From Candidatus Poribacteria bacterium (GTDB taxonomy: Bacteria; Poribacteria; WGA-4E; WGA-3G), in NCBI GenBank assembly GCA_965261115.1, contig OZ253447.1, positions 3,402,011 to 3,466,010 of the forward strand: 64,000 nucleotides of DNA, in the 5' to 3' direction. The stretch's first letter is position 1, and every line of letters starts with the position of its first letter. The notes beneath the pieces are model-generated. The model did no database searches and was not told where the DNA came from. It saw nothing but the letters and a program-made list of their open reading frames with translations. The position numbers and the translations under genes were made by a program. Below are positions 17,440 to 43,792 of the stretch, piece by piece.

Positions 17440-18564
17440 TCAAAAATCAGCAAAAGCCCCGTCGTCCGAATGCCAGAACATCCCACGCAACCGAAAGGTC
17501 TCATCTCGCACGGATTCGATAGCAGCGTCGTCCATATCCACACCGAGTCCGGGAGCCGTCGGCAGTTCGATAAACCCGTCTTTGAATACCAGCGGCGTTG
17601 AAAATAGTCCTTCGCCTCGTCGGTGTCCACCCTCGCAGATTAGCAAGTTCGGCACAGTTGCCATGACATGTACCGATGCTGCGACCCCGATGGGACCCGC
17701 AGCGTTGTGCGGTGCGATTGCCATATTGTGGATTTCCGCCATCGCCGAAATCTTTTTCAGTTCCAATATCCCGCCGCAGTGTCGGATGTCCGGTTGTAAA
17801 ATCGCGCACATCTCACGCTCAATTATCTCTCGGAACCCCCATCGTGTCAAATGCCGTTCACCCGTCGCGATCGGCACCGTCGTTGATTGAGATAAAGTCA
17901 GCAGGGGTTCGTTGTTTTCCGGATGGCACGGCTCTTCGGCAAACAGGAGTCGGAACGGTTCTAATGCTTTCACGAGGATTACCGCCATCGTCGGACTTAA
18001 TCGCCGGTGCAAATCAACCGCAATATCTATCTCGTCCCCAACTGCTTCGCGTACTGCTGCGACGCGTGCCACCATTGCCTCAATTACCTTCGGTGTGTCC
18101 ACAAATCGCACAGGTTGCGGTGAGGCTCCCATTTTCACTGCACGGAATCCCGCTGCGACCGCTTTTTTAGCACTCCCCGCACACTCGTCAGGCGTTGTGC
18201 CGCCTATCCCTGTATAGACGCGAATCCGGTTTCGCACCGAACCGCCCAGCAACTTCCAGACGGGTAGACCGACAACTTTACCGAATACATCCCACATTGC
18301 CATCTCAATGCCGCTTAGGGCACCCACCAACACAGGCATACTCCGGCTATAACTTGACCTGTACATCGCCTGCCAGTGGTCTTCAATCTGTAGCGGGTCT
18401 TTGCCGACCAAATATTCCGCCATGTCATCCACGGCTTGGGCAACGACACGCCAATGCTCGTAGTTCATCGGTTCGCCGTAGCCGATAATCCCTTCGTCGG
18501 TGAACATTTTTAGGACCATTGCGCGTCCTTGGATGGGTATCGTCTCGAATCCAGTAATTTTCAT
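17440..18564 (-). CDS. enolase-superfamily mandelate racemase/muconate lactonizing enzyme (sugar-acid dehydratase-like)
   Basis: MKITGFETIP..GYGE..KDP..IE..W N-terminal capping domain and a barrel domain. Start at the internal ATG 18564, which has an AGGA RBS and avoids overlap with the upstream gene. Confidence 0.85.
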   Translation of the reverse strand: MKITGFETIPIQGRAMVLKMFTDEGIIGYGEPMNYEHWRVVAQAVDDMAEYLVGKDPLQIEDHWQAMYRSSYSRSMPVLVGALSGIEMAMWDVFGKVVGLPVWKLLGGSVRNRIRVYTGIGGTTPDECAGSAKKAVAAGFRAVKMGASPQPVRFVDTPKVIEAMVARVAAVREAVGDEIDIAVDLHRRLSPTMAVILVKALEPFRLLFAEEPCHPENNEPLLTLSQSTTVPIATGERHLTRWGFREIIEREMCAILQPDIRHCGGILELKKISAMAEIHNMAIAPHNAAGPIGVAASVHVMATVPNLLICEGGHRRGEGLFSTPLVFKDGFIELPTAPGLGVDMDDAAIESVRDETFRLRGMFWHSDDGAFADF

Positions 18565-18577
18565 AGTGTTTTGTGTC

Positions 18578-19705
18578 CTAAATCGGTCGCCACCGGATGA
18601 TACAGAAATGTGAGTTCCCTGTAGCGTTCTCCCATTTGCTGACATCACCATAGCAGGAACCGATGAAAGTCAATATCTCTTCACCGTCTAAACTGACGTG
18701 TCGCGGGAAACCTGCGACGTGTCCGTGACAGAGATAGTAGATTTCATCTGACCAAGTTTTGCCGTTATCGTCGCTTACCATCGCACGACCGCTGCCGAGT
18801 TCGCGTGGATAACGGTGGTCGTACGCTACGACAGCACGGTTATTAGAAAGCCCAACAGCAGCACCGTGGCATTGTCCGTGTACACTCGTCAATTGACGCA
18901 GATCCGTCCATGTAGCACCGTTGTCTACTGAGTCAGCAAGAAAAACAGTTTTGTTCGTGTGGGGTTGGTCTGGCGGTCCAGGTTGGTAACGAATGACACC
19001 GAGCAGCTGCCTTGGGAAAAGTTCTGCGATGTTGACCTCATTGCCGTAGTCCGACAGCAAAAAGCGGGTTGAGAAGGTGTAGCCGTCATCGTCAGAAACG
19101 AAGACGTAAGTCGGATTCGTGCCTTCCTCAAACGGATCATCACGTCTTTTGATCGGGAGGAGAAGCGTTCCATCGCTGAGACGGGTTAGGCTTGAACCCG
19201 CAACAGTTTTCTGAAACGGTGCGACATCTATCTCGCTCGTCTGTTCCCATGTTTCACCTTCATCATCGGACATCCAGACAGTGGGCGGTTGTTCTTCACC
19301 CTGTTGACTTACGTTAATCAGGTGCCCGTGACGATTGGCTTGCAGCAACCATCCGTTGAAACCGAACGCAGAAGGATCTCTATTGAGGTGTTCCCAAGTT
19401 TTACCACCATCCGTGGATTTAGAGATGATAGTGTGCTGGACTGCATAGATAGTGTTATCGGGAGCCAACACAAGATTTAATCCCTGATAATGCGCTTGTG
19501 GGTCCAAAGGCATGCGGGTTTTCTCTACTGCTATCTTGTTCAGAACACCATCGCGGGCATGGAGAATATAATCATCCGCTTGCATATCGCTCAATTGGTT
19601 TGGGGTGACGACAGCACCGCCCATGTTTTCGGTTGACAGCATTAGTGGTTCCTCCTGGGCTATCCCAATTGCGGAAGTAATAGAAAATGGCACAGATTTA
19701 CTCAT
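18578..19705 (-). CDS. BNR/Asp-box repeat glycoside hydrolase (sialidase-like)
   Basis: Five Asp-box motifs (STDGGKTW, SDDEGETW, SDDDGYTF, SVDNGATW, SDDNGKTW). The ATG at 19705 overlaps the upstream TGA (ATGA coupling). Confidence 0.8.
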   Translation of the reverse strand: MSKSVPFSITSAIGIAQEEPLMLSTENMGGAVVTPNQLSDMQADDYILHARDGVLNKIAVEKTRMPLDPQAHYQGLNLVLAPDNTIYAVQHTIISKSTDGGKTWEHLNRDPSAFGFNGWLLQANRHGHLINVSQQGEEQPPTVWMSDDEGETWEQTSEIDVAPFQKTVAGSSLTRLSDGTLLLPIKRRDDPFEEGTNPTYVFVSDDDGYTFSTRFLLSDYGNEVNIAELFPRQLLGVIRYQPGPPDQPHTNKTVFLADSVDNGATWTDLRQLTSVHGQCHGAAVGLSNNRAVVAYDHRYPRELGSGRAMVSDDNGKTWSDEIYYLCHGHVAGFPRHVSLDGEEILTFIGSCYGDVSKWENATGNSHFCIIRWRPI

Positions 19706-21312
19706 TGATTTGCCGTCTCGGGATCTTCCGTTGAAATGTAATAATAACCCTGCATGATGCACATTTCATCCTCAGATGTTAATCCGAATCGAAGCGGTAC
19801 ATCCGTATCGTAGTTGCTGTGAGTGCACTGAAAACGGAGGCCATCGTTGTGATCCAGTATTAAGGGCGGATCGAATAGATTTGGAAACGAGGTGTCGTAA
19901 GAAATGCTCCGATGCAGCAATTCCCCTGTGAATAGCCGATTGATTTCAAAGAGTTCTCCGTGCCGATGCATGTGAGAACTCACGGAGATCAGATGCAAAC
20001 GCGCATTAGGTGGAAATCCGTGTTGAGCGAGTTCATTTTTAACGTGCCAGTCTGCTCCTGTCACACGAGTTGTTCCAGGTGGAACGTTAATATTATAATT
20101 ATGGACAAGGAAAACCTTCGCTTCATACTTTACCTCTTCGGGCGGAATCGTATAGATATTCACATAGACCTCACCGTGCATCGTTTCAGTGCCAAGTAAA
20201 TTGATGTAATGTGAGTTGAGGTCGTAGACAGCATTCCCCGGAAGCCGAAGCGCTACACCTTTTGGAAATCGGAAACTTGTGTCAGTCGTTTGCGACCCCG
20301 CGATGAGAAAACGCTCAACACCGATTATTCCGAACGTTCCGATATGCGCGAGGTCGAATAGCCTGAAGGTATCGTTTGGGTCAACACCGATCCCTGGTGT
20401 CGCTCCAATCTCTAATAAACCTCTTTCAATAGCGGCATCCGTCAGATAAAATATAGCGAAGTGGTGGCTCCCGACGGGATAGTATATTTCTACACCGTTC
20501 ACGAAAATATCTTCCTGAATGGGTTGCCCGTTTTCGTCAACGATTTGTGTTGCATAGTAAACCTCGCGCTCTGTTCCGGGTTCAATCTTGAAAGATGGTA
20601 AATGGAGTTGATAGCCTTGCCCCGGTGGTGGCCGTACTGGCGGTTCAAATACCTCAAGTGGATCGCGTAGGACGGAAAGATCGCCAATCCCGTCCAGTAT
20701 CCCTTCTTGTGGGGCACCTGCGGTAATCCAAGTCCGAATTGCATCTATCTTGCCAGAATGAAGTGTTCCAGCGTTGAAAGGCATTCGCGCCCCTTGTTCA
20801 GGTGTAGGATCCATCAGTTTTTTCAAAAGAAAGCTATTCTCTGGGTTGCCCGGATCTATCAACTTCATACCCGCCGCAACGGCTGCAGGGTTCTGTGGAA
20901 CGCGACCGACCAAATCTTGATACGAAAGTTCATAAGTGAGGTTCAAATTACCGGCATTTGCAGGGGCAGCATGGCAAGCACTATTCGCACAACTCTTATC
21001 GAAGATGTAGTCCTGAATTTCGTGATATGTTGAATTGTCATTTACCTCTGTTTTACCGAAACTGTTACTTACCCGAACCAGATCCAGCACGTTGACTATT
21101 CCGTCCCGATTGACATCGGGACTCTGTAAAGCGTTTCGATCTCCGGGTTGCCCGAGGGCAGCAGCGACGAGTACTAACTCTTGGATATTCACGGTCCCGT
21201 CTTTGTTGACATCCTCTAACAGGGTAGAAGTATCGTCGTGCGCGAACGCAAAGAAGGATACTCCACTCAGAAATAAAAAGAGCAGCATGGAATGAATCGT
21301 TTGTTTCAACAT
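19702..21312 (-). CDS. secreted copper type II ascorbate-dependent monooxygenase-like protein (PHM/DBH-like N and C domains) with two N-terminal dockerin-type repeats and a C..CH cytochrome-like motif
   Basis: Signal peptide. DVNKDGTVNIQELVLVA and DVNRDGIVNVLDLVRV dockerin repeats. HHF and SHMHRHGE histidine motifs. C-terminal SEDEMCIMQGYYY typical of Cu2_monoox_C. An alternative start lies at 21351. Confidence 0.7.
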   Translation of the reverse strand: MLKQTIHSMLLFLFLSGVSFFAFAHDDTSTLLEDVNKDGTVNIQELVLVAAALGQPGDRNALQSPDVNRDGIVNVLDLVRVSNSFGKTEVNDNSTYHEIQDYIFDKSCANSACHAAPANAGNLNLTYELSYQDLVGRVPQNPAAVAAGMKLIDPGNPENSFLLKKLMDPTPEQGARMPFNAGTLHSGKIDAIRTWITAGAPQEGILDGIGDLSVLRDPLEVFEPPVRPPPGQGYQLHLPSFKIEPGTEREVYYATQIVDENGQPIQEDIFVNGVEIYYPVGSHHFAIFYLTDAAIERGLLEIGATPGIGVDPNDTFRLFDLAHIGTFGIIGVERFLIAGSQTTDTSFRFPKGVALRLPGNAVYDLNSHYINLLGTETMHGEVYVNIYTIPPEEVKYEAKVFLVHNYNINVPPGTTRVTGADWHVKNELAQHGFPPNARLHLISVSSHMHRHGELFEINRLFTGELLHRSISYDTSFPNLFDPPLILDHNDGLRFQCTHSNYDTDVPLRFGLTSEDEMCIMQGYYYISTEDPETANQ

Positions 21313-21468
21313 GATTAACAACCCCCAATTCTTTAGCGTATAAACAGACAAGTCAGAAACTTTCTCTTGTCTGATATGATGAATTATGGCAAAATGTTTG
21401 ATGCCTCTTATTCGATTAGTTTACACGATGGAACCGTACAAAGCAAGCGATTTTAAAGAAAAACAGAT

Positions 21469-22161: not shown

Positions 22162-22914
22162 ATGGCAGAAAAAAACGCAATAGAACATCTCGAAACATTC
22201 GGATATTGCTTAATTGAAGATGCGATTCCTGCAGCGCAAGCAGATGCGATGGCGGAGAAGTATTTTCAACTTCATCAAGACCCAACGAATCAACAGGCTT
22301 TTCAGGATCCGAATGCCGAACTGTATCAAACCCTTTTCGGTGTGGTCAACCTTGATGAGATGTGTTGGGAATGTATCGCACATCCACAAGTATTAGGGGT
22401 TGTCCGTCATTTTCTCGGCGACAGCGCACGGTTGGGTGAGGCGTGTACGAAATGGGTCAAGCCGCGTGCACCGCAGGGCGGTATCCATTCCGATTCGACG
22501 CATGATCTACCCGCGCGTTTGCCCGAAACACCGTGGATGATTAATTCCATCTGGATGATAACGGATTTTACGGTTGAGAACGGGGCAACGATTGTTGTAC
22601 CGTTTAGCCATCGCGCACGGCGTAGACCTTCGCAGTCCGATATTGCAGAGAGTCATCCAGTATCGGTCTGTGGAAAACGTGGTTCTGTGCTATTATGGCA
22701 TGGTGGTACATGGCACGGGCAAGGCGCGAACACAACGGACGATCAACATCGTATGGCGTTGAATATCGCTTACTATCCGGCTTGGTGGAACCTGATGCGT
22801 GAGGGTGGACACCAACCCGTTTTTCCCGAAACCTTCGCAAAAATGCCGGAAGACCTACAAGCACTCGTTCGACATAAGGTCGCAAAACGGCGTGCAGATA
22901 TCTATGAGTTTTGA
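22162..22914 (+). CDS. phytanoyl-CoA dioxygenase (PhyH) family Fe(II)/2OG oxygenase
   Basis: HxD..H facial triad context (GGIHSDSTHD, WHGQGANT). PhyH-like length. Confidence 0.8.
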   Translation: MAEKNAIEHLETFGYCLIEDAIPAAQADAMAEKYFQLHQDPTNQQAFQDPNAELYQTLFGVVNLDEMCWECIAHPQVLGVVRHFLGDSARLGEACTKWVKPRAPQGGIHSDSTHDLPARLPETPWMINSIWMITDFTVENGATIVVPFSHRARRRPSQSDIAESHPVSVCGKRGSVLLWHGGTWHGQGANTTDDQHRMALNIAYYPAWWNLMREGGHQPVFPETFAKMPEDLQALVRHKVAKRRADIYEF

Positions 22915-25773: not shown

Positions 25774-26937
25774 ATGAAAATTACCGACATCAAACCGTAT
25801 CCCGTTTGGGTGGGACACAGAAATCAACACATTGTTAAAGTAGAGACCGATGAAGGCATTTATGGTTGGGGTGAATCCGGGCTTTCGAGCCGAGAATTAG
25901 CAGTGGTGGGTGCAGTTAAGCACTATCGAGAATTCTTGATTGGGCGCGATCCGATGCAGATCAGCGGGTTGTGGCAGGAGATGTACCGGAGTCAGTATTT
26001 TGAGGGCGGTCGTGCGTTAACAGGCGCGATCTCAGCGATTGACATTGCCCTCCACGATATTGTAGGAAAGGCGTTGAACGTACCGGTTTACCAGTTACTC
26101 GGTGGAAAGTTACGTGATGCTGTTCCGTGCTTCGCAACAACGGGTGCAGGGACAGTTGAGCAATTAATCGAAAACGCCCAATTATTGCTGGATAACGGCT
26201 GGAACGTCATCCGCACAAACGTGTTGTATCGTGCCAAACCGGGTGATGCGGAAAACATCTTTGAGCCACGTGAGTCTATCAGTCTTGCAGCGGAGTGGTT
26301 GACGGCACTTCGGGAAGCCATCGGATCCGAACCTGTGCTTGGCATTGATTACCATCACCGACTCAGCGTCGCGGAAGCCGCATCGTTCTGCCAGCGTATG
26401 CCCTCCGGCACACTCGACTTTTTGGAAGAGCCGATCCGAGATGAGACCCCAGAGGCGTATGAATCACTACGGACGATGGTGGATGTGCCGTTTGCTATTG
26501 GCGAGGAGTTCTCCAGCAAATGGCAGTTTCTACCCTATCTGGAGCGTGGGATCACGAACTTCGCCCGGCTTGACGTATGCAATGTCGGTGGATTGACGGA
26601 ATCGATGAAGGTTGCTGGCTTGGCAGAGGCGCACTATATTGACCTAATGCCACACAATCCGTTAGGTCCCATCTGCACGGCTGCGACGGTTCATCTGGCA
26701 GCGGCGGTTACGAACTTCGCATGGTTAGAAATCCGCGTTTCCCCAACAGAAAAATCTGGACATTATGATGACGATCTGTTTCCTGTGCAACATAGACTTG
26801 AAGGTGCATCTATACCAGTACCGGACGGTCCCGGCTTGGGGGTCGAAGTTAATGAAGAACTGGTCACGTCCCAGACATTCAAATTCGCGGAACCGCCACA
26901 TTTGCGTCGACGCGACGGTTCACATACGAATTGGTAG
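25774..26937 (+). CDS. enolase-superfamily mandelate racemase/muconate lactonizing enzyme (galactonate dehydratase-like)
   Basis: MKITDIKPYPV..GIYGWGE..GRDP..IS..W N-domain and a metal-binding barrel. Confidence 0.85.
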   Translation: MKITDIKPYPVWVGHRNQHIVKVETDEGIYGWGESGLSSRELAVVGAVKHYREFLIGRDPMQISGLWQEMYRSQYFEGGRALTGAISAIDIALHDIVGKALNVPVYQLLGGKLRDAVPCFATTGAGTVEQLIENAQLLLDNGWNVIRTNVLYRAKPGDAENIFEPRESISLAAEWLTALREAIGSEPVLGIDYHHRLSVAEAASFCQRMPSGTLDFLEEPIRDETPEAYESLRTMVDVPFAIGEEFSSKWQFLPYLERGITNFARLDVCNVGGLTESMKVAGLAEAHYIDLMPHNPLGPICTAATVHLAAAVTNFAWLEIRVSPTEKSGHYDDDLFPVQHRLEGASIPVPDGPGLGVEVNEELVTSQTFKFAEPPHLRRRDGSHTNW

Positions 26938-29444: not shown

Positions 29445-30572
29445 CTATCCAAATAGATATTTCTCCACAATATCTTCCCGGACCGTGACACCCAGTCCTG
29501 GAACGTCGCGGACAGCAACATAACCGTCCTCTTGTATCCATGGGTCGCTGACCAATTCATGCTGCATTGGGGATTCGTGGGGCTTAAAATCCGTGCAATC
29601 GGCATGCGTCGAGCTTGCCAACATGTGCAGACTCGCAGCAGTGTTTAAGGCACTGCTCCATGAATGCGCACTGAACTGAAGACCCTCCGCCTCAACCAGT
29701 TTGATGACATGTCGGCTGCCGGTGAGTCCGTGGCAACGTCCCGGATCAATCTGTACGATATCAACGCCGCCGGACTGGATGAGCCGTTTGTAACTTTCGA
29801 CGTTCCACTCATCTTCACCTGTACCGATGGGAGTCATGATCGCTGATCGCAATTGGGCATAAGCTTCAAAGTTTTCAGGCGGAAGCGGTTGCTCAATCCA
29901 TTTGAGCCGATAGGGTTCAAAATCTCGGATGCGTCGAATGGCTGTTGGGACATCCCAAATACGATGATGCCCAGGCGTGTCAACGACCAACTCAAGTTCG
30001 TCTCCGATGACATCACGCAAGCGACGAATCAACGCAACATCACGCTGGCGATCAAGACCAAATACCGCCTCTGGTCGCATCCCCCAACCCCCTTTCACAA
30101 CGCGGTAGTTCTGCTCTCGCAACCACCGAAATTCGTTGAGTGTCCAGTCGAAGTCTTCCATATCGAAGATGATGGATGCCATCGCTACGATTTTATCGTG
30201 TATTTGACCGCCAAGGAGTTGGCAAACAGGTAAACCGAGTGCATGTCCCTTTAAGTCCCATAACGCCATATCCACAGCACTGACAGCGAATGCTGCGATG
30301 CCTTCAGGACCATACCACCAGATACGGTCAAGCATTTTTTGCCAGTGCCGTTCCACATCTAAACCATTTTCACCGATAAGCAGCGGTGCAAATCCCTGCT
30401 CAATAATGATCTTTGTCGCGAGTGTGGCTTCTCGAAATTGTGAGATACATTCCCCCCAACCCACAAGACCATCATCAGTCTCCACGCGAGCGAGCGTGAT
30501 GTAGCGTTCGATACCTTTGTAGTGTGGCTCCGGATAGGCGAGCGGAAACGCCTGAATTTTTTGTATCTTCAT
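29445..30572 (-). CDS. enolase-superfamily mandelate racemase/muconate lactonizing enzyme
   Basis: MKIQKIQAF..GWGE N-domain. Start moved to the ATG at 30572, which has an AAGGAG RBS. The upstream 13 codons overlap the repeat element. Confidence 0.85.
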   Translation of the reverse strand: MKIQKIQAFPLAYPEPHYKGIERYITLARVETDDGLVGWGECISQFREATLATKIIIEQGFAPLLIGENGLDVERHWQKMLDRIWWYGPEGIAAFAVSAVDMALWDLKGHALGLPVCQLLGGQIHDKIVAMASIIFDMEDFDWTLNEFRWLREQNYRVVKGGWGMRPEAVFGLDRQRDVALIRRLRDVIGDELELVVDTPGHHRIWDVPTAIRRIRDFEPYRLKWIEQPLPPENFEAYAQLRSAIMTPIGTGEDEWNVESYKRLIQSGGVDIVQIDPGRCHGLTGSRHVIKLVEAEGLQFSAHSWSSALNTAASLHMLASSTHADCTDFKPHESPMQHELVSDPWIQEDGYVAVRDVPGLGVTVREDIVEKYLFG

Positions 30573-30601
30573 ATTGCTTTTATCTCCTTTCAGAGTATTA
30601 G

Positions 30602-30709
30602 CCATCAGCAATCAGCAATCGGCAATCAGTAGGCGTTGTCAACACCGAAACCCTTTTCGAGAAAGAAAAACCGTCGTCTACGGAGACTGACTGCTGACTG
30701 CTGACCGCC
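30602..30709. repeat. inverted tandem-heptad element (ATCAGCA x3-4 ... GACTGAC/TGCTGAC x3), second copy of family
   Basis: Left arm 30602-30630, right arm 30685-30709. The core CGTTGTCAACACCGAAACCC resembles the core of the 24679-24770 copy. Confidence 0.5.
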
Positions 30710-33188: not shown

Positions 33189-34013
33189 TTAAGACTTATC
33201 TGACAATGGACCCCCATCTCCGTATGAAAAAACCAATGGTAGGTGCGCATCATCTGCCAACACGTCACCGGCTTTCAACTTCGCGTACACTTCATCAGGC
33301 AACGCGCTTTTTTTACCATTGAATGTAGCATCCTCCGGCATAAAGAGCATCGCAAACGCACGACGGGGGTATGTCGTCATATTCGGTCCCGCCGCATGCG
33401 CGACCATCCCACTGATGAATACGCCGTCTCCGGCTCTCATCTCAGCTGGATATGGTTCAATCTCTGCCCACTCTGGATATTCGCGGAACAACTCACCGAT
33501 GCCGACTTCTCCGAGACTGCCACCAACCTCAAAACCGCTCGTCTTGTGTGTACCGGGTAGAAAATACAGACAGCCGTTCTGAATCGTTGCATCGTCAAGT
33601 GCTACCCAGAACATGATTGCCTGATGCGAATAAAATGGATCGTAGGGATTATCGACATGGAAATTCGTCGGGTTTGCCCACGGTTGCTTAAACATGGCGT
33701 GGTCGTGATACAATCGCACACCTGAAGTGCCAGCGAGATCTGCCGCCATCCTACCCAACTCTGGCGCGAGAATCAACGCTTTAACCTTCTCGCTCATCTT
33801 CCACAAATTGACGCATTGAACGAAGACGTTCCCGTAGTAACTGTCTCCTTTCTGATTGTGATACATATCATCGCGCTTCATAAACTGTGCGACAGCCGCG
33901 TCAACAGCATCCTGCCACGATGACAATTCTGATCCTTTCAGAAAATCGTCAATAACCAGAAATCCGTTTTCACGGTAAGATTCAACCTGATCGCTCGTAA
34001 GTTGTGTATTCAT
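33189..34013 (-). CDS. phytanoyl-CoA dioxygenase (PhyH) family oxygenase
   Basis: HVDNPYD HxD motif. PhyH-like N-terminal LTSDQVESYRENGFLVIDDFL. Confidence 0.8.
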   Translation of the reverse strand: MNTQLTSDQVESYRENGFLVIDDFLKGSELSSWQDAVDAAVAQFMKRDDMYHNQKGDSYYGNVFVQCVNLWKMSEKVKALILAPELGRMAADLAGTSGVRLYHDHAMFKQPWANPTNFHVDNPYDPFYSHQAIMFWVALDDATIQNGCLYFLPGTHKTSGFEVGGSLGEVGIGELFREYPEWAEIEPYPAEMRAGDGVFISGMVAHAAGPNMTTYPRRAFAMLFMPEDATFNGKKSALPDEVYAKLKAGDVLADDAHLPLVFSYGDGGPLSDKS

Positions 34014-34107
34014 AGCATGTTAGGTGATCGGAAAATCGAAGGATTCTTCAAAGTTAAGTTGGGATATAAGTAGTTTCTATAGGAACTGTCCCTGACGCGG
34101 TCCTTGG

Positions 34108-34716
34108 TCAAAGTGTCTCCATGTCATACAATCCAATAGAGGATGGTCTATTTTTAAGCCATTCAATTACTTTATCAGCGGAACACCTAAAAAATTCCCT
34201 ATGTTCATTAATCCGGTATTGTTTAAACTTTTTATGTAATATATCTTCAAGAATTTCAGGGTATTGAGACGGAATTGAGTAGGCGATCGAAAAGGGTTCT
34301 GGAACCCCCGTTGTATAAAGTTCCTCCGCCCGTTCATGAGCAGTTTTTTCTGTCTTTCCTATTTTTATTAAACCCGGCATGGATGGGTTTGTTAAGATAT
34401 ATACACAATTCCTTTGGTCGTTTTTGTTTGTTCCAAACCTTTCCCTAATCAGACGCTTGCGCTGATTCCAGACGATAGTTTTCCCGCCGTCATTGGGATT
34501 AGGTATACCTAACATCTCTGCCAGTTGCCTATCAGGAATATGGTTAAACAGGAATAGATTGTTTTCATCCTTTTTCAGATTCATGCGTCCTAGAACATGA
34601 TATGCCGCATCAGCATTTTTATCTTGTTTTACCATGAGCTTTGCTTCTTCAAGCAGTTTTCTAAACTCTGGATTCTTGAGATTAGCTTCAATTTGGCGGT
34701 TAGTGTCTCTTGCCAT
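34108..34716 (-). CDS. T5orf172 (GIY-YIG-like) domain protein
   Basis: C-terminal CVYILTNPSMPGLIKIGKTEKTAHERAEELYTTGVPEPFSIAY matches the T5orf172/MUG113 GIY-YIG-like pattern. Confidence 0.6.
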   Translation of the reverse strand: MARDTNRQIEANLKNPEFRKLLEEAKLMVKQDKNADAAYHVLGRMNLKKDENNLFLFNHIPDRQLAEMLGIPNPNDGGKTIVWNQRKRLIRERFGTNKNDQRNCVYILTNPSMPGLIKIGKTEKTAHERAEELYTTGVPEPFSIAYSIPSQYPEILEDILHKKFKQYRINEHREFFRCSADKVIEWLKNRPSSIGLYDMETL

Positions 34717-35223
34717 AATTCTCCTTACCAGGCAGAATTTAAAGATATTACTAATGGGCGCGCAACTCGTAGAAATAGCGAGTTGGAGCTCATTCCTACA
34801 AGAAAGGGGTCTGTAATTTAAACCATTTTACTCACAATTTATTTTACTCACAATTTAAAAGTTGACAAAGCACTATTTATAGTTTGTATCAAATGACCCC
34901 ATGAGTTACACTAAAAGTAACCCAAGTTGCCACTTGCAACATGTTCACCGAGTTGATTCCTGCCATCCCAATATGCGGCACGGCTACGACGTTAGTCTCC
35001 TTAATGCTTTTTGCAATGGGTCCGTTTGGGGACCCGTTGAGTTTTGCGTGAAAGTTACTGGTCATTGATCCCATCTTTGATAGCTTGGAGTTCATCAGAA
35101 AGGTGCCATGATAAATCAGAGATCAACGGTGTTTTCGCCATAGAATCCAGCGTAAAAGAGAACTCAGGATTGCAGGCGTGCAATATTGAATACGTGACGG
35201 AAATTTCTGCTAATCTGGCGGAT

Positions 35224-35922
35224 CTAGCCTAGCAGCCTGGATATGCTCACAGGGAAGTTAAATCCATATTTGTGTACAACCGATTTAACAGTTTCTGTTA
35301 TCCATTTCTCCTTCCTAGTATATGGGGATGTGACCACTTCGTTAATTAATGTCTTAAGATCAAATTTATGGTACTGACCAATTTCACAAATATCTTGAGG
35401 GGAATGATCAGATATAAATTGGTGAGTGTCAACGATGATACGTACCTCGCGTTCAGCTCTATATACCTCTCTTTTATAGAAATACCTATGGAAATTCCGC
35501 GTATACATCTTGTTTATCTCTGATATATCTTGTGGAACTTCAAATTCATATTGATCAGTGTAATTGACTCTGCCTATAAACACGTGAGGGGATTTGGGCA
35601 GACTTTTCTTCAAATTGCCCATAGTCGTTTTTATTGCTATACCACCATTATGCAGCCTATACCGCTCCCACATTAACATTGCTTTTGGCTCACTGTGATG
35701 CCAACAATTACACAGGATGTATCTGCCGAAGTTATTAACTCGCTCTACTACCGGCTCTACTTGCGGAGGTATAGATCCTTCAAATGGATCTTCAAACTTA
35801 TCAGATCTTGTGAAAAATAAAGATTCTTTTGCTAAAATATTGACGAATTTTTCAAAACTCATGAATCTCCATAAAACATCACGGTCTTCAGGCAATTCTA
35901 TACCTGGGAGTTCTTTATGCAT
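35224..35922 (-). CDS. DUF2971 family protein
   Basis: LWRFMSFEKFVNILAKESLFFTRSDKFEDPFEG matches the DUF2971 N-terminal signature. Start at the ATG at 35922, which has an AAGGA RBS. Confidence 0.65.
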   Translation of the reverse strand: MHKELPGIELPEDRDVLWRFMSFEKFVNILAKESLFFTRSDKFEDPFEGSIPPQVEPVVERVNNFGRYILCNCWHHSEPKAMLMWERYRLHNGGIAIKTTMGNLKKSLPKSPHVFIGRVNYTDQYEFEVPQDISEINKMYTRNFHRYFYKREVYRAEREVRIIVDTHQFISDHSPQDICEIGQYHKFDLKTLINEVVTSPYTRKEKWITETVKSVVHKYGFNFPVSISRLLG

Positions 35923-35981
35923 GTAATATCCTTTCGCAACGTAATAAAAACCGTTAACTGAAAATGAATCTATCCGCAAAA

Positions 35982-36200
35982 CTACTTATTGGGTAATTGT
36001 ATGAGTCGTCGCGCGTGGGCGTTTCGCGGGCGTGCCATCATTGCAGGTCGCTGGATAGTCAGACCTGTCAACTCTTGGAGTTGGTCTACAGTTAGGTTCT
36101 TGCCGTCTCGCCATCGGAGCATCTTCTGCACCCCCTGTTGATTTTCGGTATGGTATATTTTGGCTGTCAACCTGACAACTGCCGTCACTTCATGACCCAC
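35982..36200 (-). CDS. small hypothetical protein (may be spurious)
   Basis: 72-aa ORF between the DUF2971 gene and the lipoprotein gene on the same strand. Confidence 0.25.
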   Translation of the reverse strand: MGHEVTAVVRLTAKIYHTENQQGVQKMLRWRDGKNLTVDQLQELTGLTIQRPAMMARPRNAHARRLIQLPNK

Positions 36201-37226: not shown

Positions 37227-39740
37227 CTATTTCAAGATTAACATCTTCCGCGTTGCGGTGAAATCGCCTGCAGTGAGGGTATAAAAATAGACACCGCTCG
37301 CGACCCTTTCACCAAATGCGTTTTTACCATCCCAATACGCTGCACGACTTCGGTGCTGATACATACCCGCTGGTTGATACCCAAGTGCCAATGCTCGCAC
37401 CAATACTCCATTTACCGAATAGATGTGCAATGTGACATCGACGGGCTTCGCCAACTGATACGGTATCCATGTTTCTGGATTAAACGGGTTCGGATAATTC
37501 GCAAGTAGTGCCGTCTCTTTCGGTATCAACGTCACGAGGAGTTTTTGTAAAAACAGGATCCCGCGTAGTGATGTTGTATCCATGAGATTCAATTGCTGTG
37601 CAGCGGAAAGCCACTGTTTGACGTCTGTAGCAGCGAGCATTTCTGAGGCTTGAGGATTTAGAGAAGGTGCGGCGGCATTATTGCCTAATGCTCCAGCAAC
37701 CAAGACGAGATCCGCAATGTTGACCTGTCCATCGCCATTGACATCTGCAGTATTCTGTCCTGTCTCGCCGAGATTTGAAGCGACTAATACCAAATCCGCA
37801 ATGTTGACAGTCCCATCACCGTTAACATCTCCTTTGAGTTTAGTGGGTTCAGTTATCTCTGCGTTTTCAATCTGAGGGAGAAATGTCTCGCCTGCTCTGT
37901 TTGAAAGCAGCACATCAGATAAGGTTAGAGTGGATGCTTTCGCTGTGATAACCTCAAAGGTAAGAGTAGCGAGGGGACCATCTCCATCACTTTCTCCGGC
38001 GAGCGATGCAGCGTTGAGTTTTACGAGATTGCCCTCCACTTTCGGCTCTACAAAGAACGCATCCGCTGGTAAAAAATCACCATTCATACCTGAAACAAAT
38101 CGGAGGGCTGTATCATCAAACTGCACGGTTGCCTGATAGCCTGCGACATTTTCGCCGTTAGCAATTTTCAGGGACAATTTGAGTTGTTGACCGATATTAG
38201 GGGACTGCACACTTGCAGGCGAGAGACTCACCGTATCTGATCGGTCCCCTGTATTGTAATCAGTAATTGATTCAACAGACGGCAACGAAACTTTGTCGTT
38301 ATTTCCTAAAAGGAAGTTAGCGATTAGTTCAGCAGCAACCTTGCCTTTAGGGTTTACCTCGTTAAAGGTTTGATAGACAATACCAATCCTTCCACGATTA
38401 CCATCCCGGACAATAACCGGATCCGCTCTGGTGGCTTGTGAGGTACCTGTATCACTCGCAAGAACCTTTTCAGCAAACCAGTCCCCGGTAAGTTCATCAA
38501 GGTGAAAGGCCCTATCGGATTTAAAATTCATAAGGCTTGGAGTAACCTCTTTGCCATCTTTCGTTACTACCATTGGGGTATTATTTTCCACCCCGAAGTC
38601 CCACATTGTGATATGTGGAATATCCATAATGGCTTGTAAAGCTTGGACATCATTATGCACGTTGCCACTGGACACATAACCAAAGTAATCACCATGGTTA
38701 AGAATAGTATTTCCGTCAGTTGATTCAATCCAATTTTCTGCCACAGAACCGTCCGGTTGACTATTAGGAGACGGGTAAATAGAAGTTGGTAGGGTCCCGT
38801 AGAGGATTAAAACATCTACGTTACCATCTGAAGTTGTTTGAAGCATCCAGTCTCTAACAGAATCTTCGGTTTGAACAATTTCGGCTTGAATACCTTCTGA
38901 AGAAAGCAATTGCTTTGTGATTTGAGATTGCCGATTGGCATCATCATGGCTTATCCAACTAACAGTCCCTGTATACATCAGAACGTTTATGTTTTCATAA
39001 GGTTTTGGAGGATCTTCTTGCAGATTGATTTTTCTGAAAATTGGACGGCTATCTAACACAATTGCGTCTTCTTTTGTCATTCGCATTCTATCACCCCAAT
39101 CTTCAGTAGTATCTCCCCAAGCTTGGACAGTTCCATTTAAAGATTCACCATTATTATAGTTGTTATGTCCCGGGTCCAGTCCGAAAGCGTGGCCCAATTC
39201 GTGTGCTACTACACTAAGATAGTGATGCGGGAAATCATCTATCATATCCATAGTTACTATTGCATTACCGCCCCATCTATCACCGTGCCATGTATGCCCC
39301 CAAGCAAAACCTCGTCCCCATTGACCATGCATTTGTAAACCGCCCAAGATAATTAAATGCACATTATCACGAGAATCCCAATTGAGATCATTGTTGAATT
39401 TGTATGGGAGTTCGGATCTAACTGAATTCCAATTGTCGTTGGCATTCGTATCATAGTGATCAGTGTTGTGTTTAGCGTTAATTGTATGTATAACAAGTTT
39501 TCCATTTTCATCTGTTTCTAATGGAAATGTTTTATCAGTAAAATCGTGTCGCGTCATTTCTGACTGATAATATTTCTGAATATCTTTCATTATTTTATCA
39601 TGGTATTCATGATCTATGTCTGGAGCATCTATTGGTTTAAAATACAGAACATGAACATCGAATTTAGCAATGGATGACAGAGACGATACTGAAATTAATA
39701 TTAGGATCAAAAACGTTAGTAGAAGTCGGAAGTGTTTCAT
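37227..39740 (-). CDS. secreted zinc metalloprotease (HEXXH zincin) with two dockerin-type repeats and T9SS-type C-terminal sorting domain
   Basis: Signal peptide from the ATG at 39740. VVAHELGHAFGLDPGH zincin motif. DVNGDGTVNIADLVLVA and DVNGDGQVNIADLVLVA dockerin repeats. C-terminal NYPNPFNPET..IYSVNGVLV..GVYFYTL matches the Por/T9SS CTD. Confidence 0.75.
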   Translation of the reverse strand: MKHFRLLLTFLILILISVSSLSSIAKFDVHVLYFKPIDAPDIDHEYHDKIMKDIQKYYQSEMTRHDFTDKTFPLETDENGKLVIHTINAKHNTDHYDTNANDNWNSVRSELPYKFNNDLNWDSRDNVHLIILGGLQMHGQWGRGFAWGHTWHGDRWGGNAIVTMDMIDDFPHHYLSVVAHELGHAFGLDPGHNNYNNGESLNGTVQAWGDTTEDWGDRMRMTKEDAIVLDSRPIFRKINLQEDPPKPYENINVLMYTGTVSWISHDDANRQSQITKQLLSSEGIQAEIVQTEDSVRDWMLQTTSDGNVDVLILYGTLPTSIYPSPNSQPDGSVAENWIESTDGNTILNHGDYFGYVSSGNVHNDVQALQAIMDIPHITMWDFGVENNTPMVVTKDGKEVTPSLMNFKSDRAFHLDELTGDWFAEKVLASDTGTSQATRADPVIVRDGNRGRIGIVYQTFNEVNPKGKVAAELIANFLLGNNDKVSLPSVESITDYNTGDRSDTVSLSPASVQSPNIGQQLKLSLKIANGENVAGYQATVQFDDTALRFVSGMNGDFLPADAFFVEPKVEGNLVKLNAASLAGESDGDGPLATLTFEVITAKASTLTLSDVLLSNRAGETFLPQIENAEITEPTKLKGDVNGDGTVNIADLVLVASNLGETGQNTADVNGDGQVNIADLVLVAGALGNNAAAPSLNPQASEMLAATDVKQWLSAAQQLNLMDTTSLRGILFLQKLLVTLIPKETALLANYPNPFNPETWIPYQLAKPVDVTLHIYSVNGVLVRALALGYQPAGMYQHRSRAAYWDGKNAFGERVASGVYFYTLTAGDFTATRKMLILK

Positions 39741-39790
39741 GAGGGTTCCGTCTGTTACATACTTAGAGTCTATCATGATTGTAAAAAACC

Positions 39791-40594
39791 TTAATCATAA
39801 TTGCTTGGTCGATGATCGCCGAGGAGTCGTCTCTGCCGAGGGCTCGCTTGGGCGAGAATGGATGCATCAAACTGAAACTTATTCAGATAGGGCGGATATT
39901 TCTGTGTAATCATCCGCATGGCATAGTGGACTTGCATGAGATAGCGGACTTCATTACTCGTATTGGCAGAGCCGCGATGCCAGACTTCGCTGCGGAAAAG
40001 CACGACATCCCCGGCATTACATAAGATACTCTCTTCTCCGCGGTTATTCCACTCGGTTGCACCGTTTGGGGAACACCCAGAGAAATGGCTGCCCGGAACA
40101 AACTTCGTCGGTCCCAATTCTTCATACATATCGTTGAGATAGTAATGGGCAGTGGTGATGAAGATTGGGATTTTGACGCGCGGATCAGAACGAACGTCTG
40201 CCGGTAGAGAGATTGGCAGCCAATCGGTATGTAATCCCTGATCTGGACGGTCGGGTCCTGTCAGCCACGAATGCATACCGATGCAGTGGCAATCCTCGCC
40301 GTGCGCCGCCTCGGCAACTTCAATAACAGGCGATCTGTCAAGGTATTGGAGATACAACGGATCCCGATTAAACGAGTTGCTGATGAGCTTGTGAAGGAAT
40401 GCGTTGCCATTTTGCGGGGTTTCATCCCGGTCATGAGATTCTGGGATCGCCTCTAATCGATCCATAGTCGCTCGTAATTCAGCGATTTCATCGGCGTCAA
40501 GCACGCTGGGGAAATAGACATAACCATCCCTTTCGAGTGCTTCAACTTGACTTTCTAAGTCGTCGTATGCAACGAGTGAAAGAGCTTTCGCCAC
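39791..40594 (-). CDS. PhyH-family Fe(II)/2OG dioxygenase (tandem paralog 1)
   Basis: GLHTDWLP HxD motif. GTG start at 40594 with an AAGGAG RBS. Highly similar to the adjacent gene. Confidence 0.8.
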   Translation of the reverse strand: MAKALSLVAYDDLESQVEALERDGYVYFPSVLDADEIAELRATMDRLEAIPESHDRDETPQNGNAFLHKLISNSFNRDPLYLQYLDRSPVIEVAEAAHGEDCHCIGMHSWLTGPDRPDQGLHTDWLPISLPADVRSDPRVKIPIFITTAHYYLNDMYEELGPTKFVPGSHFSGCSPNGATEWNNRGEESILCNAGDVVLFRSEVWHRGSANTSNEVRYLMQVHYAMRMITQKYPPYLNKFQFDASILAQASPRQRRLLGDHRPSNYD

Positions 40595-40662
40595 TTTTGG
40601 TACTCCTTTCAGATAGCTGACAACCAAGCCCACAAGGACACACCTCAAATTATGTGTCACCT

Positions 40663-41466
40663 TTAATCATAATTGCTTGGCCGATGATCGCCGAGGAGCC
40701 GTCGCTGTTGAGGATTCGCTTGGGCAAGGATCGATGCGTCAAACTGAAACTTATTCAGGTAAGGCGGGTATTTCTGTGTAATCATCCGTTGTGCATAATG
40801 GACTTGCAAGAGGTAACGGGTTTCGTCAGCCGTATTGGCGGAACCCCGGTGCCAGACTTCACTGCGGAAAAGCACCACGTCCCCAGCATTGCATAAGATA
40901 CTTTCTTCCGTTCTGCCTTTCCACTCGGTTTGCCCGTTCGGAGAACACCCAGAGTAATGACTACCTGGGACAAACTTCGTCGGTCCCAGTGCTTCATACA
41001 TATCGTTGAGATAGTAGTGGGCAGTGGTGATGAAGATTGGGACTTTGACGCGTGGGGCAGAACGGATATCTGCTGGCAGCGCAATTGGTAGCCAATCGGT
41101 ATGTAACCCCTGATCCGGACGTCCCGGTCCTGTCAACCACGATTGCATCCCGATACAATGACAATCCTCGCCGTGCGTCGCTTCAGCAACTTCAATAATC
41201 GGTGATTTGTCAAGGAATTCGAGATAGAGTGGATCTCGATTAAACGAGTTGTTGATGATTTTATTGAGGAATCCGCCGCCATTTTGAGGCGTTTGGTGTC
41301 GATCCAAGCACTCTGGGATCGTTTCTAATCGATCCATAGTCGCTCGCAACTCAGCGACTTCCTCAGCATCAAGCACGTTGGGGAAATAGACATAACCATC
41401 TCTTTCCAGTGCTTCCACTTGGCTTTCTAAATCGTTGTATGCAATAAGTGAAAGGGCTTTCGCCAT
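40663..41466 (-). CDS. PhyH-family Fe(II)/2OG dioxygenase (tandem paralog 2)
   Basis: Same motifs. ATG at 41466 with an AAGGAG RBS. Near-identical length (267 aa) and sequence to paralog 1. Confidence 0.8.
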   Translation of the reverse strand: MAKALSLIAYNDLESQVEALERDGYVYFPNVLDAEEVAELRATMDRLETIPECLDRHQTPQNGGGFLNKIINNSFNRDPLYLEFLDKSPIIEVAEATHGEDCHCIGMQSWLTGPGRPDQGLHTDWLPIALPADIRSAPRVKVPIFITTAHYYLNDMYEALGPTKFVPGSHYSGCSPNGQTEWKGRTEESILCNAGDVVLFRSEVWHRGSANTADETRYLLQVHYAQRMITQKYPPYLNKFQFDASILAQANPQQRRLLGDHRPSNYD

Positions 41467-41625
41467 TTTTGGTACTCCTTTCGGACGATAGCAATAGGTC
41501 AACGCTTCTCGCTATGATATGTTAACCGCAACGAAGTTGTCAATGAAAAAATATGTCGGAGTTGGATTTCAAGCGTCCGGATTTCCTTTAAGCTCCACCA
41601 CAAAGCGATTGCCTCAATACCTCAG

Positions 41626-43792
41626 TTATACTGCCTTGAGTTTTCGCCATAGAGTTGTACGACTGATCCCCAAACGTTGTGCAGCGAGCTGTGGCTTCCC
41701 ATCAGACGCCTCCAAAACTCTTTGAACCAATTCACGTTCCAATGCGGCAAGTGGGTTGCTTTCCCTGAGTGCCTGCGTAACAATATCATCTCTCGACGAA
41801 ATAAGGTCGAGCGGTAAATGTTGCTTTTCAATGCTTCCACCCTGACATTTGACGAATGCATGCTCTATAATATTTTCCAACTCTCGCACATTGCCGGGGT
41901 AGGTATAATCCATTAAGATTTCAAGGGCATCGGGTGCGATCCGATGAATAGATTTTTGGGTCTGTTGACTGAATTTTTCAATGAAGTGTTCAATGAGGAG
42001 TGGAATGTCATCTCGTCTTTCACGGAGTGGCGGCGGCGTAATCGGGACGACGTTGAGCCTGTAGTATAAATCCTCGCGGAAACGTCCAGCATCAATTTCT
42101 GTTTTCAGGATTCGATTTGTCGCTGCAATGACGCGGACATCTACTTGCTTTGTATCAGTTGAACCAACCATTTCATATTCGCCTTCTTGCAAGACGCGAA
42201 GCAACTTTGCTTGTGTACTGAGACTTAACTCGCCGATTTCATCAAGAAAAAGGGTACCACCGTCCGCAGCTGCAAATCGTCCTTCACGCGTTGTGATGGC
42301 ATCGGTAAACGCACCTTTGACATGTCCAAAGAGTTCACTCTCCAGCAGATTATCAACTAAGCCTGCGCAATTGACGCGAATGAAGGGCTTTTTTGCCCGA
42401 TCGCTATTGTAGTGGATCGCGTGAGCAATCGGTTCTTTGCCGGTACCCGCTTTCGCCTTGAATCAGGACAGTTGTTTTCATGGGGGCGACGAGTTGAATC
42501 AACTCGAAAATCTCCTGCATTTTCCGATTTTTTCCGATGAGATTCCCAAACGAATGGCGCGCCTTGAGTTGGGCACTGAGTGCCTTTACCTCCGAAAGAT
42601 CACGGGCGAATCCCTGGATAAATTCCCGCTCGTCATGCACAATTGGGACCGCGCGAATTTCCAATGGTAAGCGGCTTTTATTTTTATGCGACAGCTCCGT
42701 TTGGAAAGTAATCGGGTTCTGTTGACCGAGGCCTTTAAGCATTTCGTCGGTGTTTTGAAATTCATCGGGAGGCATTAGGTCGCGCAGCGACAGATTGACG
42801 AGTTCTTGGTGTGTGTAACCAAGCCAGGCACAGAAATTTTCGTTTACGGTAACAAATGCTTCTGTCAGTGATGGACAAATGAAGATTGCGTCATTGGACA
42901 TCTCAAAGAGTGTGCGGTATCGTTTGTTGTTTTCGGCGAGTTTGTCTGTCCAATTCCCTTTTTCAATCAGAATTGAGAGTTGCCCAGCAATCGGTTTCAG
43001 TCGTCTAATATGTGCCTCGGAGAATGCTCGGGGTTGTTCACTGGTGAAAAAGACGACCCCAATCGGTTTACCTTGCACCTTGAGCGGAAGTGTTAGATTT
43101 GAGCGCATCCCTTCTTGAACCATGAGTCTTGTCCAGTGCGTCGGTCTTTTTGCGAGAGTTTCCTTAAAATCGTCGATAATTCGTGCTTCGCCTGAATTGA
43201 GAATAGGTTCAAGACTTGACCCTTTGATTTTTGCTGAGAACCCGTTGTCCAGCAAGATTTTTCTGTTGGATTTCGTTTTGCACTGCACTAAGTCACCGGA
43301 GAATTCGTCAATGAGTGCGATGCCTAACCGGTTATGTGGCACTATGCGCTGAAGTCCAGCGTGGATATTCTCAAAGACTTCATCGAGCGTCTTTCCAAGT
43401 TGAATCTGCTCAAGGATTCCATAGATATGATCAGCTTCAACAGTTTGGTTAAAAACAGTATCTTCGAGTCTATCACTCATTGGTGCTTCAGGAGTGACTG
43501 CGATCTGAAGGGTATCTCCATCAAGCCGGAGCGGATAGGTTCGGACATTCGGCGTCGTAATAGGGCATCCACTTTTCAGATCGTATTGCCAACCGTGCCA
43601 GGGGCAGGTAACAACTTCACCCTCCAGTGTTCCTTCGTTGAGTGGTCCTCCCAGATGTGGACAGGCATTATTGATAGCATAAAATCTTTTACCCGTGTTG
43701 AAGATTGCGATGCTTTTATTGTCTAATTTGATGACAATGCTCTGTCCCGGTTCGATTGCAGATGTTTTAACGACATTCATCCACTTCACCAT
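41626..43792 (-). pseudogene. sigma54-dependent transcriptional activator with N-terminal Rieske [2Fe-2S] domain (Rieske-GAF-PAS-AAA+-HTH), +1 frameshift inside Walker A near 42444
   Basis: Rieske CPHLGG..CPWHGW. GAF and PAS regions. The Walker A reads GESG then shifts frame to [12 protein letters not shown].. (expected GESGTGKE). The downstream frame carries GAFTDA, the ESELFGH-type motif, RVIAATN, a Fis-type HTH ([14 protein letters not shown]). Confidence 0.75.

Follow-up and report, generated by a model that had tools for sequence, protein, structure and literature searches.

A dockerin-tagged, cytochrome c-fused protein with a predicted PHM/DBH-like two-copper core in a Candidatus Poribacteria genome

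We consider it probable, as an account at the level of architecture, that gene A of the Candidatus Poribacteria sequence analyzed here encodes an exported oxidoreductase of PHM/DBH type that carries a haem c, two copper sites and a dockerin tag. The sequence (hereafter the window) is a stretch of 64,000 nt from contig OZ253447.1 of assembly GCA_965261115.1, positions 3,402,011 to 3,466,010. As read from its domains, the gene A product would be a haem-fused, dockerin-tagged bacterial PHM/DBH-like monooxygenase belonging to a large uncharacterized family. The PHM/DBH class of two-copper enzymes is known almost only from animals, where its ascorbate-dependent members are involved in the formation of amidated peptide hormones and noradrenaline; Poribacteria are sponge symbionts. 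Two further genes, B and C, follow gene A on the same strand. An earlier note on this DNA had taken the three as a glycan-catabolic operon and had proposed, by analogy with lytic polysaccharide monooxygenases (LPMOs), an oxidative role for A on carbohydrates; the comparative data reported below do not support an LPMO-like glycan role, and it should not be assumed.

Domain architecture of the gene A product

The catalytic core of the gene A product is recognized by profile, by pairwise alignment and by structure. Pfam Cu2_monoox_C (PF03712) matches residues 407-528 with 33.8 bits against a cut-off of 23, and in a phmmer search of the PDB rat PHM aligns to residues 347-527. In this alignment the His of an SHY motif (H368) falls on PHM H172, the two His of an HMH motif (H447, H449) on H242/H244, and the Met of a DEMC motif (M517) on M314; the HH pair at residues 283-284 corresponds to PHM H107/H108. 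The N domain, which holds the CuH half, is recognized by structure and ligand motifs only. Structural matching recovers a PHM-like core in which two jelly-roll domains enclose a cleft between them, and by alignment the ligand sets of the monooxygenases are complete at both CuH (three His) and CuM (two His and one Met). These data uphold the claim of the earlier note that both halves of a copper type II monooxygenase fold are present. Loss of the His and Met ligands, which that note had named as grounds for abandoning its proposal, is not observed: H283, H284, H368, H447 and H449 are invariant in all 76 homologues compared (26-95% identity), and M517 is retained in 75 of them. Weak Foldseek matches of the gene A model to viral capsid proteins are attributable to the double-jelly-roll fold, among whose families PHM is treated as a eukaryotic one (PMC8812541).

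The core nevertheless departs from the characterized enzymes with which it aligns. The residues by which PHM binds the substrate carboxylate, R240, N316 and Y318, are replaced by S445, I519 and Q521 in the gene A product, and the same three positions vary family-wide (T/S/V, I/L/F and F/Y/I/V, respectively). Because these carboxylate-binding residues are absent, peptidyl-glycine is predicted not to be the substrate, and the assignment to PHM proper (peptidylglycine hydroxylase) was rejected. Identity to PHMcc (PDB 1PHM, 1SDW, 1OPM) is about 17%; relative to that enzyme, the gene A product is bacterial and Sec-exported, has an N-terminal dockerin and a cytochrome c domain, lacks the PAL domain, and is probably dependent on electrons from haem and not on ascorbate. 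Assignment to DBH/MOXD1 was likewise rejected. In DBH, tyramine beta-monooxygenase (TBM) and MOXD1 (4ZEL) the arrangement, as seen in DBH, is an N-terminal DOMON domain and a C-terminal dimerization domain after the core, whereas Pfam detects no DOMON domain in the gene A product at E ≤ 1, the domain preceding the core is a c-type cytochrome module, and the dimerization domain is absent. The gene A product thus appears to hold the chemistry set of the PHM/DBH class, yet to be neither PHM nor DBH.

Of all features of the protein, the cytochrome c domain tells most about its mechanism. The C-x4-CH motif that the earlier note had listed without interpretation is present as CANSACH (residues 108-114) and most plausibly marks a c-type cytochrome domain. 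A Cys-Xn-Cys-His motif occurs in all 75 homologues that cover this region (n = 4 in 48, n = 2 in 23 and n = 3 in 4); spacing variation of this kind is known for haem c attachment sites. About 60 residues downstream, M177-P178 is invariant in 76 of 76 homologues. A profile of the domain searched against the PDB returned mostly c-type cytochromes (FoxE, 4e-4; the haem domain of hydrazine synthase alpha, 0.018), with some 18 cytochrome c6 entries among the matches. The profile places C..CH on CXXCH and the Met-Pro pair on the segment that supplies the axial Met in cytochrome c6; both a distal axial Met candidate and a cytochrome c fold are found. Partial similarity extends to TIGR03806 (NCBIfam; SO2930-family dihaem cytochrome), which matches at its C-terminal part with E 5.7e-6 and 25.7 bits against a cut-off of 313. 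Three family members match PSCyt1 (PF07635; best 1.2e-9), and the haem domain of fatty-acid cis/trans isomerase (CTI) is also matched in family members. In comparison with class I cytochromes (FoxE 5MAB, cytochrome c6, PSCyt1, TIGR03806), the domain has CX4CH in place of CXXCH and is fused to a copper monooxygenase core, whereas theirs are standalone or arranged in multi-haem arrays.

Export and display signals precede the cytochrome domain. By inspection, the N-terminus (MLKQTIHSMLLFLFLSGVSFFAFA, followed by HDD after the predicted cleavage) is a typical Sec signal peptide, and residues 2-23 form a helix in the AlphaFold2 (AF2) model, which bears out the signal peptide previously proposed. 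The two dockerin-type repeats reported with it (DVNKDGTVNIQE and DVNRDGIVNVLD) are genuine and resemble cellulosomal dockerins: Pfam Dockerin_1 (PF00404) matches residues 33-84 with 34.4 bits against a cut-off of 22.9, and phmmer aligns the region with the PDB dockerin 2y3n_B (E 4.5e-5). Concern had also been raised that such repeats might be generic EF-hand-like calcium sites with no cohesin partner; here the Pfam cut-off is passed, and 16 kb away lies a gene for a protein with a cohesin domain. As an element added to the architecture of cytochrome c and copper core, the dockerin is lineage-specific.

This second protein (849 aa, exported) has Pfam matches to Cohesin (at about residues 515-620, 33.3 bits, cut-off 24.1), Dockerin_1 (39.7 bits) and FlgD_ig (31.6 bits), together with a match to Reprolysin_5 over its HELGH region that lies under the cut-off of that model (23.9 bits). 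The type I dockerin of A could tether it to a cohesin-bearing surface protein, and a pairing with this product is put forward as putative; with a cohesin and a dockerin in one polypeptide, the candidate partner could build chains or scaffolds. The likeness to cellulosomal type I dockerin-cohesin systems (2Y3N, 2B59) lies in the two EF-hand-like Ca repeats and in the presence of a cohesin protein in the same window. The differences are that the dockerin of A is N-terminal, where theirs are usually C-terminal, that its cargo is a redox enzyme and not a glycoside hydrolase (GH), and that the organism is a Gram-negative-type sponge symbiont. At L004, one of the paralogue loci, the gene immediately upstream of the A paralogue likewise has a product that matches Reprolysin_5 weakly.

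After cleavage, the gene A product is predicted to begin with His25 (21238-21240, minus strand), directly before the dockerin; Poribacterial homologues keep this residue (AHND, GHSD). LPMO histidine braces have an N-terminal His as their hallmark; His25, however, does not lie within any LPMO-type domain. LPMOs have mononuclear histidine-brace copper in an Ig-like fold unrelated to the PHM double jelly-roll. Membership of the LPMO families (AA9-AA17) was rejected on fold, the protein having the PHM-type double jelly-roll with two separate copper sites.

Residues 95-536 served as the query of an exhaustive HMMER search, which, counted in representative clusters, yielded 4390 at E ≤ 1e-3, of which 887 pass E ≤ 1e-10. 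In many lower-scoring matches only the cytochrome-like module is covered; among the top 150, about 65 have alignments that span cytochrome and core alike. The family is represented in Poribacteria, Planctomycetota, Chlorobi and Bacteroidota, every member being annotated as hypothetical; at the stricter threshold, bacteria of at least four phyla hold a broad family with a complete copper ligand set. Homologues begin with signal peptides or lipoprotein-like leaders, and type IX secretion system (T9SS) sorting domains were found in 16 of 76 and dockerins in 20 of 76, so that the enzymes of this family appear to be exported and often surface-displayed by one or the other, and apparently to contain their own electron donor in the fused haem c domain. 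Accessory domains include Por_Secre_tail, FlgD_ig, Big, PKD, cadherin-like, FG-GAP and PD40. NCBIfam has no model for a family that joins cytochrome c to a PHM-like core and the PDB has no bacterial member of it; a description of a bacterial family of this kind was not found in the literature, though accounts elsewhere are possible. The joining of a cytochrome to such a core characterizes a widespread bacterial family that has no name.

Genomic context and the proposed glycan role

In the list of open reading frames (ORFs) of the window, A, B and C are three co-directional ORFs on the minus strand, set head to tail in that order, and their close packing is as previously described. Gene A reads from an ATG at 21312 to a stop at 19702, and the reported gap of 13 nt between B and C (18565-18577) is correct. 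An ATGA overlap at 19702-19705 had been taken as the junction of A and B. The tetranucleotide is present, but its role as a junction does not hold up well: a second ATG of gene B at 19642 lies 8 nt after AGGAGG, the gene B orthologues are all called at 354 aa from the Met equivalent to this ATG, and the A-B spacer of one orthologous locus (L013) is 34 nt, in which a 21-codon upstream extension of B cannot be conserved. On these grounds gene B most likely starts at 19642 and the true A-B spacer is probably 59 nt (19643-19701); translational coupling of A and B through ATGA was rejected. No terminator-like site was found between the three genes on the minus strand, and for that reason their co-transcription is plausible.

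Gene C exceeds the NCBIfam equivalog cut-off for galactonate dehydratase (NF010624, 404.4 bits against 311) and matches Pfam PF13378 (MR_MLE_C, 218 bits) and PF02746 (MR_MLE_N, 70 bits), in agreement with its earlier description as a sugar-acid dehydratase. Gene B had been described as a BNR sialidase-like hydrolase, and this is sustained for family and fold: Pfam BNR_2 matches with 55.4 bits, BNR is matched as well, the AF2 model (pLDDT 93) is a six-bladed propeller with Asp-box repeats, and Foldseek returns a pseudaminidase (2w38, 5.6e-12) and the sialidases of M. viridifaciens and P. gingivalis (about 1e-10, TM 0.61-0.66). A sialidase-type catalytic site (an Arg triad, a Tyr/Glu nucleophile pair and an Asp acid/base) is putative. 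Sequence and profile alignments to PDB sialidases are driven by the Asp boxes and out of register, and the best match is to a GH74 xyloglucanase; R218, R249, R277, R280, R286, E202, Y278, Y302 and Y303 are invariant in the gene B family.

To compare neighbourhoods, species-representative genomes were scanned and the best 80 loci, all Poribacterial, were kept; further loci were fetched, and the comparison covered 92 loci. The orthologous locus has a fixed frame of PhyH, methyltransferase, A, DUF309 and UDP-glucose dehydrogenase genes, within which B and C may follow A. The A-B-C order is kept in five loci (the window, L001, L011, L012 and L013), with identities between the window and L012/L013 of 76% for A, 89% for B and 93-94% for C. 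B is deleted in L008 and L009, leaving A-C and, in L009, a 30-aa remnant of B; A stands alone in L014, where both B and C are absent; and in L010 a mobile-element-like ORF of 340 aa separates A from B-C. The A-B-C arrangement is confined to one Poribacterial sublineage.

A paralogue clade, with 61-68% identity to the window protein and two to three copies per genome, occupies another context, which in 58 of 85 loci consists of an SDR gene, a GT2 gene (33-nt gap), the paralogue A', a MetH-like gene and DUF6785. The MetH-like gene is a fusion of S-methyl_trans and MTHFR. No BNR gene or close relative of C adjoins A' at the paralogue-clade loci. Six loci of distant family members have unrelated neighbours (an MFS transporter, YkuD, ECF sigma factors, TonB-dependent receptors, SDR) without B and C, and homologues of B were in turn found without A or an adjacent C. 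The earlier note had looked to neighbourhood conservation in related bins for support; the variable presence of B and C at the orthologous locus and their absence elsewhere mean that such support was rejected, and that the adjacency says little on the substrate of A. It appears instead to be a recent, non-obligate arrangement in one sublineage, not a conserved module.

These comparisons bear directly on the proposal of a glycan-catabolic operon, in which A would act in the manner of an LPMO on a cohesin-dockerin scaffold, oxidizing sialylated or sulfated glycans of the sponge matrix, and B and C would process the products. We regard this as unlikely. The tight packing of the three genes, and their joint retention down to 76% identity of A, accord with an operon, but the deletions and the intervening ORF at the orthologous locus, the 58 paralogue loci without a BNR gene or dehydratase next to A', the unrelated neighbours of distant members and the independent occurrence of B do not. 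A does carry a true dockerin, and one gene of the window has a cohesin domain; a scan of 80 family members, however, showed none with a fused carbohydrate-binding module (CBM) or GH domain, and such fusions were dropped as a hint to the substrate. An enrichment of GH33 and glycosaminoglycan-degrading genes has been reported for sponge symbionts, Poribacteria among them (PMC8163846), and the window itself abounds in genes for sugar-acid dehydratases and has one for a pectate lyase; both points would suit a catabolic role. Neither B nor C has a signal peptide, unlike the exported A, and the sialidase residues of B are not confirmed by alignment. Sialic-acid catabolism does not involve galactonate dehydratase, which does not act on sialic acid, and B and C therefore form no coherent sialic-acid pathway. 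A carbohydrate substrate for A, taken by itself, is equally improbable.

Three further observations concern these loci. The L010 ORF (11817-12839, plus strand) is found between the orthologues of A and B in one Poribacterial metagenome-assembled genome. Its N-terminus (…GQHLMPTHAARARKLVKRGEA…) presumably resembles the PLMP domain of IscB/IsrB-type (OMEGA, IS200/605-associated) nucleases; if IscB/IsrB-like, it would be a mobile element splitting the supposed operon. Some paralogue loci (L003, L018, L026, L040, L065) hold tandem A' duplicates, adjacent copies that are 65-67% identical to the window protein. An SDR gene directly precedes the Planctomycete member too (L088).

Proposed mechanism and candidate substrates

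Under the reading of A as a PHM/DBH-type oxidoreductase, the protein would be exported by Sec and its signal peptide cleaved, and its cytochrome domain would be loaded in the periplasm with covalently bound haem (Cys108-X4-Cys113-His114, with Met177 as axial ligand). The haem c would take single electrons from a periplasmic or extracellular donor, soluble or at the surface, and pass them to CuH (His283, His284, His368), thereby replacing the supply from ascorbate and cytochrome b561 on which the animal enzymes draw. CuM (His447, His449, Met517) would bind O2 and hydroxylate a C-H bond of a substrate lying in the interdomain cleft, and the dockerin would mount the enzyme on a cohesin scaffold. 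Haem domains that feed single electrons to an extracytoplasmic copper site are found in the pairing of the cellobiose dehydrogenase cytochrome with LPMO and in cytochrome c-fused nitrite reductases, which offer a functional analogy to this proposal and no homology.

Several observations weigh against this account. The Pfam model of the N domain (PF01082) does not match the gene A product even at E ≤ 1. No curated cytochrome hidden Markov model exceeds its cut-off on the window protein, PSCyt1 scoring 13.2 bits against 22 and TIGR03806 also falling below. AF2 confidence is under 50 at residues 109-112 and low around the CX4CH loop, and it is low again across the dockerin. Members displayed by T9SS or a dockerin would sit outside the periplasm, where an electron donor to haem c is hard to place. 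Haem attachment, copper loading and oxygenase activity of A are, throughout, deduced from sequence and predicted structure.

A function without oxygenation was also considered. A might be an extracytoplasmic redox protein engaged in electron transfer, in reduction of small inorganic molecules (O2, H2O2, superoxide or nitrogen oxides) or in copper handling, with no hydroxylation of a substrate. Copper nitrite reductases that carry a cytochrome are built in this way, as a cytochrome c joined to a copper domain, although their T1 and T2 copper sites lie in cupredoxin folds. The gene has no conserved substrate-pathway neighbour, and ECF sigma factor genes near the A homologue in three of five distant contexts would fit a stress or envelope role. 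However, the exact CuH and CuM ligand sets are retained in 75-76 of 76 homologues and the interdomain cleft architecture is kept, and no member of the PHM/DBH fold is known to have a purely redox role. On balance we judge a purely redox function very unlikely.

If A is a monooxygenase, as we favour, its substrate might be a small molecule or a peptide: an amine of phenylethylamine, tyramine or bromotyrosine type from the host or the community, or a C-H bond of a peptide or lipid. To our knowledge all characterized members of the fold (PHM, DBH and TBM) act on small amines or peptide termini, and the fold and ligand set are fully conserved here, but the substitutions at R240, N316 and Y318, with their variability across the family, and the lack of a DOMON domain like that of DBH count against this reading. 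The usually monocistronic gene, whose varied surroundings at times include SDR, ECF sigma and TonB-receptor genes, suits a substrate of this kind without positively indicating a particular one, and display by dockerin or T9SS is commoner among enzymes whose targets are polymers or surfaces outside the cell. We therefore offer a small-molecule or peptide substrate as a tentative possibility.

A wider proposal would be that the family comprises extracytoplasmic, electron-self-sufficient monooxygenases that in Poribacteria are dockerin-mounted on surface cohesin scaffolds and either hydroxylate or cleave oxidatively a component of the sponge host matrix, be it a glycan, another polymer or a metabolite, and that they form a new class of extracellular copper oxygenases alongside LPMOs. 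In this full form the proposal is speculative, and we think it rather unlikely to hold. Members of the family may nonetheless offer a compact, bacterially expressible model for intramolecular electron delivery from haem to CuH to CuM, and they raise the testable question of which substrates bacteria oxidize with PHM/DBH chemistry. For sponge-symbiont biology, a redox enzyme would join the possible cargo of Poribacterial cohesin-dockerin pairs.

Feature coordinates and other content of the window

Table 1. Features of gene A, its neighbours and other loci in the window (positions counted from the first nucleotide of the window)
Feature	Positions	Strand	Description
Gene A	19702..21312	-	536 aa, secreted; signal peptide, dockerin, cytochrome c domain, predicted PHM/DBH-like two-copper core
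Sec signal peptide, residues 1-24	21241..21312	-	Predicted cleavage between AFA and HDD; read from sequence
Type I dockerin, residues 33-84	21061..21216	-	Two Ca-binding repeats; Pfam PF00404
Predicted c-type cytochrome domain, residues ~95-205	20698..21030	-	Haem motif C108-X4-C113-H114 at 20971-20991
Putative axial ligand M177 (with P178)	20779-20784	-	
PHM-like N-terminal jelly-roll, CuH site	20128..20640	-	H283 and H284 (20461-20466), H368 (20209-20211)
PHM-like C-terminal jelly-roll, CuM site	19723..20127	-	H447-M-H449 (19966-19974), M517 (19762-19764)
Gene B	18578..19642	-	354 aa, cytoplasmic BNR/Asp-box six-bladed propeller, sialidase-like fold; revised start
Gene C	17440..18564	-	374 aa, enolase-superfamily D-galactonate dehydratase-type (MR_MLE)
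Candidate partner or scaffold of A	37227..39776	-	849 aa, exported; metallopeptidase-like region (HELGH), cohesin, dockerin, C-terminal FlgD_ig
MR_MLE dehydratase paralogue	25774-26937	+	
MR_MLE dehydratase paralogue	29445-30611	-	
Periplasmic pectate lyase	45132-46949	-	Pectate_lyase_2, 294 bits
PhyH-family gene	22162-22914	+	
PhyH-family gene	33189-34013	-	
PhyH-family gene	39791-40660	-	
PhyH-family gene	40663-41502	-	
PhyH-family gene	49414-51243	-	
Rieske-GAF-PAS protein	42404-43792	-	462 aa
Low-GC stretch	34001-36000		GC 0.39, against about 0.48 for the window
ORF in low-GC stretch	35224-35979	-	251 aa, no Pfam match

Gene C is one of three MR_MLE dehydratase paralogues in the window, which are 26-32% identical to one another. 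Together with the pectate lyase, these dehydratases fit uronate or sugar-acid catabolism as a theme of the region that is independent of gene A. The window also shows a marked local expansion of oxygenases, with at least five genes for PhyH-family Fe/2OG dioxygenases (phytanoyl-CoA dioxygenase-like) in 64 kb; two of them stand in tandem directly upstream of the gene for the cohesin-dockerin protein. One further product joins an N-terminal Rieske [2Fe-2S] domain to GAF and PAS domains, an unusual sensor-like architecture. The low-GC stretch may be foreign DNA.

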